A DNA stretch of 64,000 nucleotides from Escherichia phage LorandFenyves_Bas91, in sequence record PQ850614.1. The stretch is one strand, 5' to 3'. Every line of letters starts with the position of its first letter. Position 1 is the first letter of the stretch. The notes under the pieces are model-generated. The model was not told where the DNA came from, ran no database searches, and saw nothing but the letters and a program-made list of their open reading frames with translations. Of this stretch, positions 21,241 through 53,517 are shown piece by piece. The position numbers and the translations under genes were made by a program.

Positions 21241-21336
21241 TATTGTATAGCTGATAAAGTTATTGCAGGCTTGTATATTGGGCAATTCACAGAATCCCTT
21301 GCAAGTACCGAAGGGCAGGAGCCACCTGCGAGATAA

Positions 21337-21402
21337 AAATAGAGAATTAAGGAATCCTTGATTTAGGTTGTAGGGACTCCTAGGGACTTTGATTCTCTAT
21401 TT
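21337..21402. other. nested stem-loop with internal TAGGGACT direct repeat
   Basis: AAATAGAGAAT (21337-47) pairs with ATTCTCTATTT (21392-402). Inside are AAGGA/TCCTT and TAGGGACTCC-TAGGGACTTT. On the minus strand it is followed by TTTTTAT (terminator-like). Confidence 0.5.
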
Positions 21403-21516
21403 AAAAGAATATTAATTACTTATTACCTAAATAATTAACTAACTTACTTAAACCAAATTCAAGAATAATAGATAAAAAGATTATTCCTAAGAAAGCTAAA
21501 AAGTAAAGGATATAAG

Positions 21517-39712: not shown

Positions 39713-41743
39713 TTAACCTCTATTCAATGAACATTTAGGGGAATTACAATAAACTTGATTCATAGAACCAAGCGTACAACTTTCAGCATCGCGCCACGGA
39801 ATCTGCTTAAAACACTCTGAGCAGTATCCGAGGGTTGACCACATGGCTTTGGTGAAGTCAGTGCTTCGGTTTCCGTCGAAGCTGACAACAGTTTTGCGGA
39901 GAGCTGTTCGTGATTCAGGAAACACACCTGCTTTCTCAGCAGGTTCCTCCTTTTTTGGCTTAGTTGAGATTGCAAAAATACTGTTGCTACGTTTCTCAAC
40001 ATAAGCATCAACAACATCCTCCAGAGTGATGCCTGTCTGTTTCGCTGAGGAAGGTAATACAGTCATACGACCAATCATTTCTTCAGTTACACGTAAAGCA
40101 AATTCAGGACGACGGGCGTTTGTTGTATCTGTTGCTTTAATCCATACATAACCATCTTTGATCGTAGCATTAGATACTTTCTTCTTTACTTCTACAGCGC
40201 AGACTTTACAGATATCTTCTCCACGAAGACGACTAAGCTCATCATCGAACTCATTCTCTGTTTTAACTTCACCACAGATTTCACAAACACCAATAGGAGT
40301 CTCCTCCTCTTCTTCCTCTTTAGGTTTAGTCAAACCTTCCAGACATTCAGGATGCCAGTAGCACTGATATGCGAAGACTGCTTTAGGTGCATCCTTCCAG
40401 TCAATGTGCTTGTCACAACCACCACAATCACCATGAGAGTGTGCTTCCCAGAATTTACGAGTGATAGTAACGCCATTCTTGTTGACGAAACTATCATTCA
40501 TATCAAAAGGGATATCATCATCGAAGTCAGCAGTAGTTGACTCAGGCTCCTTTTTCTCCAGAGACGGGTCAACAAAACGACCTGCTGTGATCACTAAACG
40601 AACCATAGCATTAACTTCGGAGATGCAGGATACTGTCCCACGGTAAACAATTTTAGGGTCTTTCAGTGCGTCCTGATAAGCCTTAATGTCTACGTTATGA
40701 ACATCACCTTCGATGTATTCTTGAGATTTCTCATCGTAGATATAGCCAATCATCTTACCACGAGAAGGAACAGCACCAGCAGTCGCATAAGGAACAAACT
40801 CATGTGGTGTGATTTCCACAGTCATATCGCGGCGGATATCAATGTTTCGATCGCTTGCGATTTTGTTTTGACTTACCACTGCGTTTCTTCGACGAACGTC
40901 TGCCGCTGTCACACCCGGCTTCGTGTCGTAAGGATTGCTTGTATTGCTTTTTGAGGAACTTTGATAGTTGCTTTGGCTGTAGTTGTTCGAGTAATAACTG
41001 CCCCAACGATTGGCTACCGTAAAAACCGGAAGCTCGTGGGCGACCTCTTCAACCAGAGTCATGCTGTTGTTTGACATATCAAAGATATATTCTGTACCAA
41101 CTTTACATTCAAAATGCTCGTCAATACGGTTCTTATGGGACTTAGAACGCTTCAGAATCCACATCAACATATCTTCTTCAGAAGCACCAAACCAATCTCT
41201 GTTACAACGTGCGAGATGGAAAGGACGCTCTTCGTTACGAATGATATGAAGGCGGTTATCAGAAGCATCATGCCAGATTAAGGTGAAAGCACCATCCAGC
41301 TTTTGAATAGTCTCTGCTGCACCAATAGTGTTAATAGAGTGGCAGATGTTCTCACTGTCTACCTCGAAGTTTTTGCTGTCAGGTAACAGATCTTGGTCCA
41401 TCAAGGTTCCATTATGAACCAGAGTGATGTTACCATGTTGGAAAGGATGGGCGTTCTTGGCGTTAACTGCACCTTTCGTTGCATGACGACTGTGACCAAC
41501 AATCCATGAAGGTGCTACAGTGTAAGCTGTTTCACCAGTGGTGTGCTTCTTGTACTCATCTTGTAGGATGAATGCGAAAGAAGGAAGAGCTTCTTTATAA
41601 GTGAAGACTTCCTTAGTACTTTTACGCTGACCAAAGATACCGGAGGAATGTTGTCCTCGGAATACTCCAGCATAAAAGAGTTGGTTAAATACGTCTAAAT
41701 CAGTGCTTGACAGATTACCGCCAGCTAATACGATGCCACAAAT
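39713..41743 (-). CDS. class II (Ntn) glutamine amidotransferase fused to three Zn-ribbon modules; proposed ATT start
   Basis: The frame stays open 339 nt upstream of the track's TTG 41404, up to a TAG at 41749-41747, and encodes CGIVLAGG...GHSRHATKG...NAHPF...HNGTL. No in-frame ATG, GTG or TTG exists there. AGGTGG lies 8 nt before ATT 41743, and the next codon is the nucleophile Cys. C-terminal part: CGGC...CYWHPEC, CEIC...CKVC, CSEC...CNSPKC. Confidence 0.7.
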   Translation of the reverse strand: MCGIVLAGGNLSSTDLDVFNQLFYAGVFRGQHSSGIFGQRKSTKEVFTYKEALPSFAFILQDEYKKHTTGETAYTVAPSWIVGHSRHATKGAVNAKNAHPFQHGNITLVHNGTLMDQDLLPDSKNFEVDSENICHSINTIGAAETIQKLDGAFTLIWHDASDNRLHIIRNEERPFHLARCNRDWFGASEEDMLMWILKRSKSHKNRIDEHFECKVGTEYIFDMSNNSMTLVEEVAHELPVFTVANRWGSYYSNNYSQSNYQSSSKSNTSNPYDTKPGVTAADVRRRNAVVSQNKIASDRNIDIRRDMTVEITPHEFVPYATAGAVPSRGKMIGYIYDEKSQEYIEGDVHNVDIKAYQDALKDPKIVYRGTVSCISEVNAMVRLVITAGRFVDPSLEKKEPESTTADFDDDIPFDMNDSFVNKNGVTITRKFWEAHSHGDCGGCDKHIDWKDAPKAVFAYQCYWHPECLEGLTKPKEEEEEETPIGVCEICGEVKTENEFDDELSRLRGEDICKVCAVEVKKKVSNATIKDGYVWIKATDTTNARRPEFALRVTEEMIGRMTVLPSSAKQTGITLEDVVDAYVEKRSNSIFAISTKPKKEEPAEKAGVFPESRTALRKTVVSFDGNRSTDFTKAMWSTLGYCSECFKQIPWRDAESCTLGSMNQVYCNSPKCSLNRG

Positions 41744-41822
41744 TTTCTAATCCACCTGAAGGGTAAACCCTTTCATCTAATTAACCTTTAAATTGTGCCC
41801 CTTTATCAGAGGCACCCATTGA

Positions 41823-42926
41823 TTACAGCGCTTGCTCTAACTGATTTTCCAGATGGTCTGGAATGTACCCTGTGATATTGCTATCACTGTGACCAGACTC
41901 ACGTAGTAAGTCAAAAATAGCACGAATACGTTGTTCTGGAGCGTGTCTTACTTGAGATAGGTCTGCTGTACGAAGCATAACCAAAATCTCTTGATACAAG
42001 TTGTTAGCGTTCCCTCGAACATATCCAAGGAATCCATAGAAGTCTGACATAAGACGTAAGTCAACAAGAACCTCTCCGTTGGAGTTGGTTCGACGTAAAC
42101 GAATACGACCAGACTGTTCTACTTCATGAGAACGGCAATACAAAACATCACGGGCCATACAATACCCTGAATGCAAATCAGATTCATCCAGATTGTAATC
42201 CAGAGGAAGGTAAGGAAGCATTGGGGCAAATCGTACAGTATTTAAGTGCTCAATAAACTGATCATTGCTCATATCTGCGTTATCTAAAGCCAGCTTCTTC
42301 AACATCAAGAAGCGGTTAACCAGATTGAGAAGTTGACCACGTTTCCACTTAGGCTCACTGATACGGAACTCAATTGAACCGTATTGGGCAAGTGGCAGAA
42401 GGTTCAGAGATGTATATTTATCCCATGAACGAACCAGACGGTTGAAGAATTCTTCACCATCGTAGTTAAATGCGTCAGAGGCATTCATTACCTGTGCTTG
42501 TACCACTGCAAACGCAGGGCAGAAATTGCTACGGTAACGATGGTAGCCTGAACACTTGAACAGCATCTTTTCATAGAAGGTCCAAGCAAGGATGGTCTTC
42601 TTGAGGATATTACTATCAGCATCCCTCATATCCATATGAACGTGAGTAGAGCAACGCCAAGTCCCCTCGGCGTGCGATTCAGCTACTGCTTCACTCAGGT
42701 TGTTGATAGCGTCTAACAACTCCTGTCCGTTGTAAGGTCGTGAACATACCATTTCACAACCGTTACGCAGGGAACCATCCTCTGTGCAATCCCACATATC
42801 TGCTTCGATATGTTCAGAACCTTCGAGTTCAAGCTCAATACCGACACCGCACTGAAGTGCAATTGAACTATGCGCCTCAGTTAAACGACCTTCTCGATAT
42901 CCAAAAGTTTGCGCTACAGTTGTCAT
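41823..42926 (-). CDS. amidoligase (glutamine-synthetase/GCS2-like 'Amidoligase_2' type)
   Basis: N-terminal GVGIELELEG strand motif plus downstream His/Glu/Arg positions resembling the putative amidoligase family, by eye. Confidence 0.6.
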   Translation of the reverse strand: MTTVAQTFGYREGRLTEAHSSIALQCGVGIELELEGSEHIEADMWDCTEDGSLRNGCEMVCSRPYNGQELLDAINNLSEAVAESHAEGTWRCSTHVHMDMRDADSNILKKTILAWTFYEKMLFKCSGYHRYRSNFCPAFAVVQAQVMNASDAFNYDGEEFFNRLVRSWDKYTSLNLLPLAQYGSIEFRISEPKWKRGQLLNLVNRFLMLKKLALDNADMSNDQFIEHLNTVRFAPMLPYLPLDYNLDESDLHSGYCMARDVLYCRSHEVEQSGRIRLRRTNSNGEVLVDLRLMSDFYGFLGYVRGNANNLYQEILVMLRTADLSQVRHAPEQRIRAIFDLLRESGHSDSNITGYIPDHLENQLEQAL

Positions 42927-47074: not shown

Positions 47075-47100
47075 TAAAAAAGGACTCTCCGAAAAGAGTC
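47075..47100 (-). terminator. intrinsic terminator
   Basis: Minus strand GACTCT-tttcgg-AGAGTC followed by CTTTTTT. Confidence 0.6.
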
Positions 47101-47163
47101 AAGCTTTAAATACAAAAAGATATTACCCAATATCTGTGGATAACCTGCTCTTAAAATATCTAT

Positions 47164-47203
47164 CCGACGGATGTTCGAGGGATGTTCCTCTCCCTAGCAT
47201 CGG
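47164..47203 (-). other. conserved stem-loop element, copy 1
   Basis: Minus strand CCGATG-CTAGGGAGAG-gaacatcc-CTCGAACATC-CGTCGG. The outer 6-bp helix encloses blocks shared with the copy at 53184. Confidence 0.5.
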
Positions 47204-49378: not shown

Positions 49379-49503
49379 GCATGTAAGATCTAACAATCGG
49401 TTGCCTTTGTAGGAATAGGTGTAAAGCCAATCCAGCACTAAACTCCCGCCCCCTTAGTGGGCTGGGTTATTAAAGGGTAACGCCCTTATGGGCTAGTTAC
49501 ATG
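49379..49503 (-). ncRNA. candidate structured RNA (unclassified)
   Basis: A long-range 7-bp helix CATGTAA/TTACATG encloses ~110 nt. Inside is a 10-bp bulged hairpin (49431-49465) and short GC hairpins. No ORF. A terminator lies downstream. Confidence 0.35.
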
Positions 49504-49569
49504 AATGTTAGTTTGATAGGAGATCTGAAGTCCTATCTCAAAGGACTCTCGTAAGAATCCTTCACGATA

Positions 49570-49701
49570 TTACTTATTCATTTTTCGTCGGCTATCTCTC
49601 CAAGCCAACCAAGTGTAGGTTTTCAACTCTTCTAAACTTTCTGGAGTGAATAGGTATTCTTTGAAGGTGTCACTAAACCACTCTAAAAATTCTTCAGTCA
49701 T
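49570..49701 (-). CDS. small ORF (43 aa), hypothetical
   Basis: Below the track threshold. MTEEFLEWFSDTFKEYLF... Weak RBS. Confidence 0.35.
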   Translation of the reverse strand: MTEEFLEWFSDTFKEYLFTPESLEELKTYTWLAWRDSRRKMNK

Positions 49702-51013: not shown

Positions 51014-51089
51014 TGGTCGGGACGGAAGGATTCGAACCCTCGTAAGGCGAGTTAGAAGCTCGCTGCCTGTTCCACTAGACTACGCCCCG
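51014..51089 (-). tRNA. tRNA-Arg(UCU): tRNA-Arg (anticodon UCU), CCA encoded
   Basis: Hand-folded 76-nt cloverleaf. Acceptor CGGGGCG/CGTCCCG. Anticodon arm GCGAG-CTTCTAA-CTCGC. T-arm GAGGG-TTCGAAT-CCTTC. Discriminator A + CCA. Confidence 0.85.
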
Positions 51090-53219: not shown

Positions 53220-53261
53220 GGCATATGCCTGAATTAATAAGTTAATGAGGAACACCCTCAC

Positions 53262-53289
53262 ATAGCCCTCTGATAAACACAAGGGCTAT
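53262..53289 (-). other. ATAGCCCT/AGGGCTAT hairpin after the gene stop (module copy 2)
   Basis: 8-bp stem 10 nt after the stop of 53299..53517. Confidence 0.5.
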
Positions 53290-53298
53290 AAGTCGGTG

Positions 53299-53517
53299 TT
53301 ACTTTTGGGATAAACACAGATCAGGGCGTGGCATAACAGTGGTTGATAGACCGAAAACTTCAACAGAACCACTATTCAGATTAGCGGCCTTGCACAAACC
53401 ATCAGGAGTTTTATCTTCTAACATTAGCCAGAAACGTCTATCGTAGGAGAAAACATCACCACTTTTAACATCTTCTGCATTTGCATATTTAGGATAATCA
53501 ACTACTTTAATTTCCAT
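53299..53517 (-). CDS. small beta-rich protein, 8-member paralog family
   Basis: VKSGDVFSYDRRFWLMLE...LCKAANLNSGSV. Confidence 0.65.
   Translation of the reverse strand: MEIKVVDYPKYANAEDVKSGDVFSYDRRFWLMLEDKTPDGLCKAANLNSGSVEVFGLSTTVMPRPDLCLSQK

Follow-up and report, generated by a model that had tools for sequence, protein, structure and literature searches.

An ATT codon as the probable start of an amidotransferase gene in phiEco32-like phages, within a conserved hairpin-bearing leader

We analysed 64,000 nucleotides (nt) of Escherichia phage LorandFenyves_Bas91 (PQ850614.1), referred to here as the window, which matches Escherichia phage vB_EcoP_SU10 at 99.9% and phiEco32 at 98% (Kuravirus, Gordonclarkvirinae; phiEco32/SU10-like E. 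coli podophages). A minus-strand gene of the window encodes a protein with a class II glutamine amidotransferase domain of the N-terminal nucleophile (Ntn) type, and its translation probably initiates at an ATT codon directly before the codon of the catalytic cysteine. This start had been put forward in the original prediction, made from the sequence alone, and every comparative test favours it; only AAA and ATT lie between the preceding in-frame TAG and Cys1. As an annotation the ATT start is not new, and the original prediction re-derives one dating from the phiEco32 record: deposited coding sequences (CDSs) start exactly at ATT in SU10 (KM044272, SU10_085), phiEco32 (NC_010324, phi32_83) and Bas87. 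New here are the invariant 55-nt leader around the codon, the recurrence of this leader module in an Aeromonas phage and a third lineage, and the apparently independent ATT and ATC starts with a hairpin in other homologues. The analysis also adds comparative support for expression of the domain from ATT, and indicates that most related records are mis-annotated.

The amidotransferase domain and the position of its start

39713..41743, minus strand: CDS with the amidotransferase domain, 676 codons from ATT; corresponds to phi32_83 and SU10_085, whose GenBank CDSs map exactly
41012..41740, minus strand: class II (Ntn) glutamine amidotransferase domain, residues 1 to ~243, as delimited by Pfam, AlphaFold, Foldseek and invariant residues
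41752..41757, minus strand: Shine-Dalgarno-like AGGTGG, 8 nt before ATT
41741..41743, minus strand: ATT, putative initiation codon; AAA is the sole other sense codon between TAG and Cys
41738..41740, minus strand: TGT, codon of the nucleophile Cys1; invariant in alignment A1 and nearly so in alignment A2
41402..41404, minus strand: TTG, internal Leu codon rather than start; codon 114 from ATT and first canonical start in the frame

The minus-strand frame 39713-41746 is open and is bounded on its 5' side by an in-frame TAG at 41749-41747, which is followed by AAA (41746-41744), ATT (41743-41741), TGT (41740-41738) and GGC ATC GTA. Read directly on this strand, the positions given in the original prediction for the TAG, the ATT, the AGGTGG with its 8-nt spacing and TTG 41404 all hold. 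The mechanical list of open reading frames (ORFs) opens the frame at TTG 41404, and therefore no ATG, GTG or TTG lies between the TAG and this codon, as had been claimed; the stretch without an in-frame canonical start comprises 114 open codons (113 from ATT, plus AAA). No other open frame of 150 codons or more in the window comes near such a run before its first canonical start, the runner-up having 27. Like genes known to initiate at AUU or AUC, this one thus has no canonical alternative to its AUU, which occupies the one position possible for a start, and it has a Shine-Dalgarno sequence at functional spacing. Inspection of the sequence 5' of TTG 41404 revealed no Shine-Dalgarno sequence.

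The translation from ATT contains all four motifs named in the original prediction as an Ntn amidotransferase N-terminus (CGIVLAGG, GHSRHATKG, NAHPF and HNGTL), and that assignment is borne out by family models, predicted fold and invariant residues. Pfam PF13522 (GATase_6) matches residues 76-176 with 55 bits (cutoff 27) and therefore straddles TTG 41404, which sits in the HNGTL-MDQ segment in the middle of the match; PF13537 (GATase_7) scores 27.4 (cutoff 25), and GATase_4 also matches. A sequence search of the PDB with the whole protein gave no match, and a fold search was needed. The AlphaFold model of residues 1-258, built from a 19-sequence alignment, has a predicted local distance difference test score (pLDDT) of 89.6 and a predicted template modelling score (pTM) of 0.88. 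It is ordered to about residue 243, and its first beta-strand spans residues 2-7, with Cys1 just before it. The best Foldseek match in the PDB is 1xff, the glutaminase domain of GlmS (E = 9e-14); PurF (1ao0 and 1ecf), the asparagine synthetase ASNS and EgtC are matched as well, all with probability 1.00. In GlmS, the glutamine-binding and oxyanion residues are Arg73, Asn98-Gly99 and Asp123. R85 (in GHSRHAT), N110-G111 (in HNG) and D128 (in VDSE), which are invariant in alignments A1 and A2, would be their equivalents, judged by motif context rather than superposition. The domain has every testable attribute of a class II Ntn amidotransferase: Cys1, family models, the four-layer alpha-beta-beta-alpha fold in which the nucleophile begins a central strand, and conserved residues.

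The remainder of the protein does not resemble GlmS. Only GATase models were matched by Pfam in the 676 residues, and C-terminal SIS domains are missing, so the RefSeq product name of phi32_83, L-glutamine-D-fructose-6-phosphate aminotransferase, is unsupported. The C-terminal ~430 residues (39713-41010) match no Pfam family. This part carries several CxxC pairs (CGGC, CEIC...CKVC, CSEC), which occur also near the C-terminus of the consensus of distant homologues and suggest zinc-ribbon-like modules.

Several observations indicate that the stretch upstream of TTG 41404 is a real, translated domain and not a decaying remnant. The ratio of nonsynonymous to synonymous substitution rates (dN/dS) over the first 113 codons is 0.06-0.07 at dS >2 (window against EP335, Bas87 and two IMG/VR genomes), equal to that of the next 125 codons. 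The every-third-base periodicity of substitutions starts exactly at TGT. Frameshifts in homologues had been named in advance as the mark of a remnant; none was found in these 113 codons, nor any stop, in any genus compared. Judged by the structural model, a product started at 41404 would lose the nucleophile and half of the sheet.

The start position is further constrained by the alignment of homologous genes. ATG-TGT stands at the homologous position in Proteus phage Privateer, Vibrio phage Vp_R1, Salmonella phage SE131 and Aeromonas phage LAh_9, and likewise in a 70%-identical metagenomic relative (L087). MC- is the N-terminus in most homologues, and Cys1 aligns to position 2 of three PHROG profiles (4736, 18128 and 14519). 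Sister lineages thus have ATG at the place where all of 96 related records from E. coli and Shigella phages have the identical ATT; 5 IMG/VR genomes and 7 metagenome contigs carry the ATT leader unchanged as well. ATT is therefore fixed rather than an error, and we consider it likely that translation initiates at 41743-41741.

Three points weigh against this start. The 9 peptides of the SU10 proteomics study (PMC4281155) were matched against a 63.8 kDa, TTG-start sequence; because the database entry was this 563-residue form, they are silent on the N-terminus. Table 2 of that paper gives 63.8 kDa for CDS85 and its Table S1 gives 677; the computed masses are 76.1 kDa for the ATT-start form, with a mature protein of 675 residues that has Cys first, and 63.8 kDa for the TTG-start form. 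Secondly, the Shine-Dalgarno sequence in Kuravirus is moderate, its central base being mismatched (GGUGG; GGCGG in Aeromonas phage BUCT695). Thirdly, a 65%-identical relative (L086 1700-1725, Logan contig SRR34434937_1013038) reads GTG ACT AAA ATT TGT, with an in-frame GTG three codons 5' and no stop between. This relative can be read either with a GTG start and a 4-residue MTKI propeptide or with an ATT start and AGGTG 6-7 nt 5', and it may be an intermediate between the types of start codon.

The leader module and its recurrence

41736..41790, minus strand: invariant 55-nt leader block, from TTTAAAGG to the second codon of the gene; 96 records, and an exact match to EP335
41759..41772, minus strand: hairpin AAGGG-TTTA-CCCTT, 1 nt before the Shine-Dalgarno sequence; invariant in 96 records
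41747..41776, minus strand: 9-codon upstream open reading frame (uORF) MKGFTLQVD*, in frame with the gene; its TAG ends 3 nt before ATT

The invariant leader, its hairpin and the 9-codon uORF are additions to the original prediction. The block is at least 99% identical in the 96 records, which at 55 nt leaves no mismatch, and it is exact in EP335 (Nieuwekanaalvirus) though the flanking synonymous sites are saturated. Among the exact matches that the window has with 46.6 kb of EP335, it ranks 18th in length. The codons of the uORF (ATG AAA GGG TTT ACC CTT CAG GTG GAT TAG) show no synonymous variation next to saturated neighbouring codons; they are therefore conserved as nucleotides, and their conservation is mute on whether the uORF is translated. 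The fold of the whole leader is not significant (z = -1.46). An alternative hairpin that would sequester the Shine-Dalgarno sequence (GGUUUACC with GGUGGAUU) was dropped, both BUCT695 substitutions breaking its pairing. Pattern scans of viral and metagenome sequences for variants of the leader returned identical copies only.

The same module is present in two more distant lineages. The leader of Aeromonas phage BUCT695 (Grimontviridae, NC_070977, L077 2495-2556) is 91% identical (...ATTAGATGAAAGGGTTAACCCTTCAGGCGGATTAGAAAATTTGT), and its N-terminal protein resembles Grimontviridae-type homologues, not that of Kuravirus. Its loop is altered to TTAA with the stem retained; the Shine-Dalgarno sequence is AGGCGG, in the same register with the central base altered; and the uORF keeps its length, frame and stop (MKGLTLQAD*), followed by AAA ATT, with no Shine-Dalgarno sequence of its own. 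The second case, a phage contig in a Herbiconiux assembly (L090, 60% identity), reads AAAGGGA-TTTA-TCCCTT GGAGAGG ATTAG TAA ATT TGC. Its stem (AAGGGA-TTTA-TCCCTT) is longer by a matched A/T insertion, its Shine-Dalgarno sequence GGAGAGG is in the same register, and tandem in-frame TAG TAA adjoin ATT. It has no uORF ATG, so that the uORF, a candidate coupled leader peptide, is present in Kuravirus and BUCT695 and absent here.

What the three lineages share is precisely the hairpin, the Shine-Dalgarno sequence, GATTAG and ATT, and the conserved core of the module, as far as comparison indicates, consists of hairpin, Shine-Dalgarno sequence, in-frame stop or stops, and ATT. The 70%-identical relative with an ATG start (L087) has TTTAAAGGA-N7-ATG-TGT. 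Comparison with it suggests that the uORF ATG and AAAGG of Kuravirus are an ancestral initiation region, with a 33-nt module between this region and the Cys codon.

Several exact matches between the window and EP335 exceed the leader block, at 81-131 nt (49502-49632, 30021-30137, 21323-21409, 53242-53325 and 47100-47180). Such long matches, several of them in the early region, may be conserved non-coding elements or recent exchanges.

ATT and ATC also precede the cysteine codon in other homologues. Among 56 IMG/VR homologues, the codon at this place is ATG in 38 plus one MCC case, ATT in 11, ATC in 4 and TTG in 2. The ATT and ATC cases beyond Gordonclarkvirinae belong largely to a separate clade that includes Pseudomonas phage O4 (L073, NC_031274) and Klebsiella phage Klyazma (L074, OP125547) of the Zobellviridae; L044-L048, L054, L056, L058 and L061 are further loci with such starts. 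In O4, Klyazma and these loci, GGAGGA stands 7 nt 5' of the start and a covarying hairpin adjoins it. A Shine-Dalgarno sequence of the GGAGGA type lies 6-8 nt 5' of the start in the ATT/ATC homologues, and several of them have an in-frame stop 2-7 codons 5' with no canonical start.

All 13 distinct ATT/ATC leaders have a hairpin of 4-6 base pairs ending 0-3 nt 5' of the Shine-Dalgarno sequence. In a fixed segment of 27 nt 5' of that sequence, the median folding energy is -6.1 kcal/mol (-3.5 to -8.3) for ATT/ATC leaders versus -0.7 kcal/mol for 33 ATG leaders (Mann-Whitney p = 1.8e-6, uncorrected for phylogeny). The stem sequences vary between lineages; in 7 members with a triloop, both partners change in 6 of 6 stem pairs, and pairing holds in 93% of cells versus 57% after shuffling. 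Within the genus Citrovirus, Klyazma has ATC and the hairpin, and Erwinia phage Pecta has ATG and no hairpin. The hairpin is missing, too, from two ATG clade-mates (L052 and L053) and from three other ATG phages. These comparisons indicate that ATT/ATC starts arose independently in Zobellviridae-like homologues, nearly always together with a covarying hairpin adjoining a strong Shine-Dalgarno sequence.

Other observations count against the association with the hairpin. The segments used for the covariation analysis were centred on predicted hairpins, a choice that favours pairing. A homologue from an Alcanivorax metagenome-assembled genome (L091) has ATT without a hairpin, and L093 has TTG with one. 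The association is possibly inflated by phylogenetic inertia, because there are about 2 origins and few correlated losses. A universal rule that ATT/ATC starts are coupled to a uORF or stop was also considered and was not upheld, six leaders having no upstream ORF end nearby.

Proposed mechanism of initiation and alternatives

Sequence and comparison, in our view, establish the domain and the selection on it, where the start lies, and that the module is conserved and recurs. By analogy with known systems, we infer that initiation occurs at AUU 41743-41741, directed by AGGUGG 8 nt 5', that the initiator transfer RNA (tRNA) puts in formylmethionine (fMet), and that deformylase and methionine aminopeptidase strip it, exposing Cys1. 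fMet-Cys is a good substrate of methionine aminopeptidase, and an AUU start would therefore yield the required Cys1. Because AUU is a weak codon that initiation factor 3 (IF3) discriminates against, output would be low or conditional and sensitive to IF3, as for infC and pcnB. Initiation at AUU and AUC reaches ~1-2% of that at AUG, with Met as the N-terminal residue (bioRxiv 10.1101/063800); in another system AUU was 6-8 fold below AUG (PMC3592434).

We speculate that the leader module (5-bp hairpin, 1 nt, Shine-Dalgarno sequence, in-frame stop, AAA, AUU) sets the efficiency of this weak codon. The hairpin could stack on the helix between the Shine-Dalgarno and anti-Shine-Dalgarno sequences and strengthen it, or insulate it from other structure, and in Kuravirus ribosomes that end the 9-codon uORF 3 nt 5' may contribute by reinitiation. 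More tentatively, the arrangement of hairpin, 0-3 nt, Shine-Dalgarno sequence, 6-8 nt and AUU or AUC might be a dedicated and so far undescribed control module, which phages acquired repeatedly for Ntn amidotransferases and in which the hairpin enables a start that is normally rejected; we hold this as a possibility, with low confidence. If it were true, expression of a potentially harmful glutaminase would follow the IF3 and ribosome state of the infected cell.

AUU could instead be used mainly by coupling: the uORF (AUG 41776) would be translated, the hairpin melted, and ribosomes terminating at UAG would reinitiate 3 nt on, with de novo initiation playing a minor part. We regard this as doubtful. 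The invariance of the uORF in the 96 records and the same frame, length and stop position in BUCT695 speak for it, and the order of stop, 3-nt gap and AUU is the layout of the thrS-infC junction, at which reinitiation is about as frequent as de novo initiation (PMC3592434). At L046, L054, L059 and L061, short upstream ORFs or genes end 4 nt before the ATH codon. However, the Herbiconiux contig has hairpin, Shine-Dalgarno sequence, stop and ATT and yet no uORF start codon, which argues against an obligatory uORF; the uORF of BUCT695 lacks a Shine-Dalgarno sequence; and the six leaders mentioned above have no ORF ending nearby. Conservation of the uORF is at the level of nucleotides, and the uORF may be what remains of an ancestral initiation region, which L087 shows as TTTAAAGG-N8-ATG.

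It is also conceivable, and in our judgement improbable, that the 55-nt block is conserved for a reason other than start use, as a promoter, an RNA processing site or a protein-binding operator. The invariance does reach beyond the hairpin on its 5' side, as far as TTTAAAGGTTAATTAG, the hairpin has AUUAGA on either side, and other exact blocks of 50-130 nt are shared with EP335 elsewhere in the genome. No match to the phiEco32 gp36 promoter element tAATGTAtA was found in the leader, however; mapped gp36 promoters lie 5' of phiEco32 genes 6, 13, 26, 40, 58 and 68, not of gene 83 (PMC8948821), and the SU10 promoter table has none between CDS85 and CDS86. A promoter and terminator scan of the minus strand gave nothing relevant and no sigma-70-like site, and the one consensus promoter match on the plus strand (41707-41734) has no gene to serve. 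An Rfam search of 41500-42000 at a permissive threshold returned only a chance-level astro_FSE hit of 14 bits (cutoff 70), and neither half of the leader has a second copy in the window. The parts kept across the three lineages are, moreover, the elements of the core just described, namely hairpin, Shine-Dalgarno sequence, GATTAG and ATT.

Initiation at AUG 41776, which is in frame with the amidotransferase gene, followed by rare readthrough of UAG and autocatalytic removal of a 12-residue propeptide by the Ntn domain, is very improbable. B. subtilis PurF (1ao0) is made with a propeptide, which counts for this account, as does L086, where the leader can be read through to the cysteine without a stop. 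Against it, TAG serves as a normal stop in this genome, where 5 of 49 long ORFs end with it, and no suppressor tRNA was found in the 64-kb window, whose sole tRNA is tRNA-Arg; recoding of TAG was rejected for the same two reasons. The Herbiconiux contig has tandem TAG TAA adjoining ATT. The codons of the uORF are not evolving as protein-coding sequence, because they show no synonymous drift beside saturated neighbours, and in the 13 ATT/ATC leaders the Shine-Dalgarno sequence sits 6-8 nt before ATT or ATC.

That the catalytic domain is not made at all, translation starting at TTG 41404 or ATG 41401 and the upstream 113 codons being an untranslated remnant, would accord with gene callers, with most deposited annotations (ATT is not covered by a CDS in 22 of the 27 annotated records sampled) and with the 63.8 kDa of the SU10 paper, and is nonetheless the least credible account: it was offered as the alternative in the original prediction and is contradicted by the dN/dS of 0.06-0.07 at saturated dS and by the lack of stops and frameshifts in any genus, and the 41404 start would split GATase_6 in mid-sheet at a TTG that has no Shine-Dalgarno sequence.

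Neighbouring genes, deposited annotation and known systems

41823..42926, minus strand: Amidoligase_2 gene (Pfam PF12224), directly upstream in the same cassette; phi32_84 and SU10_086
41795..41815, minus strand: predicted stem-loop 3' of the amidoligase gene, GTGCCTCT-GATAA-AGGGGCAC
51014-51089, minus strand: tRNA-Arg(TCT), the sole tRNA of the window; also annotated in EP335

The amidotransferase gene lies within a leftward early cassette in the order COOH-NH2 ligase, hypothetical gene, Amidoligase_2, amidotransferase gene, two small ORFs and an ATP-grasp-like gene, with a gamma-glutamyl cyclotransferase (GGCT) gene further along. From the fold match and the amidoligase, ATP-grasp and GGCT neighbours, the protein could act as a gamma-glutamyl amidohydrolase like EgtC. 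The stem-loop at 41795-41815 varies on both sides between genera (GGGTGCC/GGGGCAC versus GGGCGC/GGGCGC). It is terminator-like, yet it has no clear T-run and is therefore not a canonical intrinsic terminator; the terminator scan made no call there.

The deposited phi32_83 and SU10_085 records carry no note on the start codon, the leader module or its recurrence. Of 30 records bearing the leader, taken as a spread sample, a CDS covers the ATT in 5 and is lacking there in 22, and the other 3 carry no annotation. The amidotransferase gene of the EP335 RefSeq record (NC_070979; L003/L076) begins at residue 58, the annotated CDS of BUCT695 (NC_070977) has an internal ATG start by which Cys1 is lost, and the deposited CDSs of O4 and Klyazma start 36 and 16 codons too far downstream, respectively. 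In the same EP335 record, the Amidoligase_2 gene bears the name 'putative L-glutamine-D-fructose-6-phosphate aminotransferase-like protein'. Our literature searches on ATT starts and phage amidotransferases, with the phiEco32 genome and transcription papers outside their reach, yielded no paper on this start codon; searches on ATT starts in phage amidotransferases likewise yielded no published description of the module of hairpin, Shine-Dalgarno sequence and ATT or ATC.

E. coli has two confirmed AUU starts, infC and pcnB (bioRxiv 10.1101/063800). As in infC, the phage gene has an AUU start without a canonical alternative and a stop 3 nt before it (thrS UAA GGU AUU versus phage UAG AAA AUU; PMC3592434), and for both, sensitivity to IF3 discrimination and low basal translation would be expected. 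In contrast to infC, whose product autoregulates, no such role has a counterpart in the phage; the upstream frame is a 9-codon uORF rather than a full gene, and a hairpin adjoins the Shine-Dalgarno sequence. E. coli pcnB and Enterococcus faecalis ebpA share a rare, expression-attenuating ATT start. The ebpA gene had been annotated from a downstream ATG, and its ATT was first predicted from sequence (PMC4447247), which is the same kind of mis-annotation as in the phages. Unlike in pcnB and ebpA, the position of the phage start is fixed by the chemistry of Cys1, and the solution recurs in several phage lineages.

Among amidotransferases, the phage protein shares with GlmS, PurF, AsnB and EgtC a Cys nucleophile at the N-terminus, the Ntn fold and the conserved Arg, Asn-Gly and Asp residues. 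It lacks a SIS, PRTase or synthetase domain and has the ~430-residue C-terminal region with CxxC pairs instead. Its gene also differs from all four by its neighbours in the cassette, which include Amidoligase_2, COOH-NH2 ligase and ATP-grasp-like genes.

Records that truncate the gene and drop the catalytic Cys make up most of the deposited genomes of this phage group and include those of the Zobellviridae O4 and Klyazma, and the truncated genes are then mislabelled or called hypothetical; the correct start in these records, as judged from the comparisons above, would be ATT or ATC. Because the chemistry of the enzyme fixes the start position independently, the gene is a clean test case for AUU initiation in well-studied coliphages. 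Since Cys must be residue 1, the amidotransferase family is likewise a built-in ruler for non-canonical starts that gene callers miss. The hairpin module, conserved in 96 genomes, found across families and convergent in a second lineage, is a candidate cis element that may tune the use of weak start codons.

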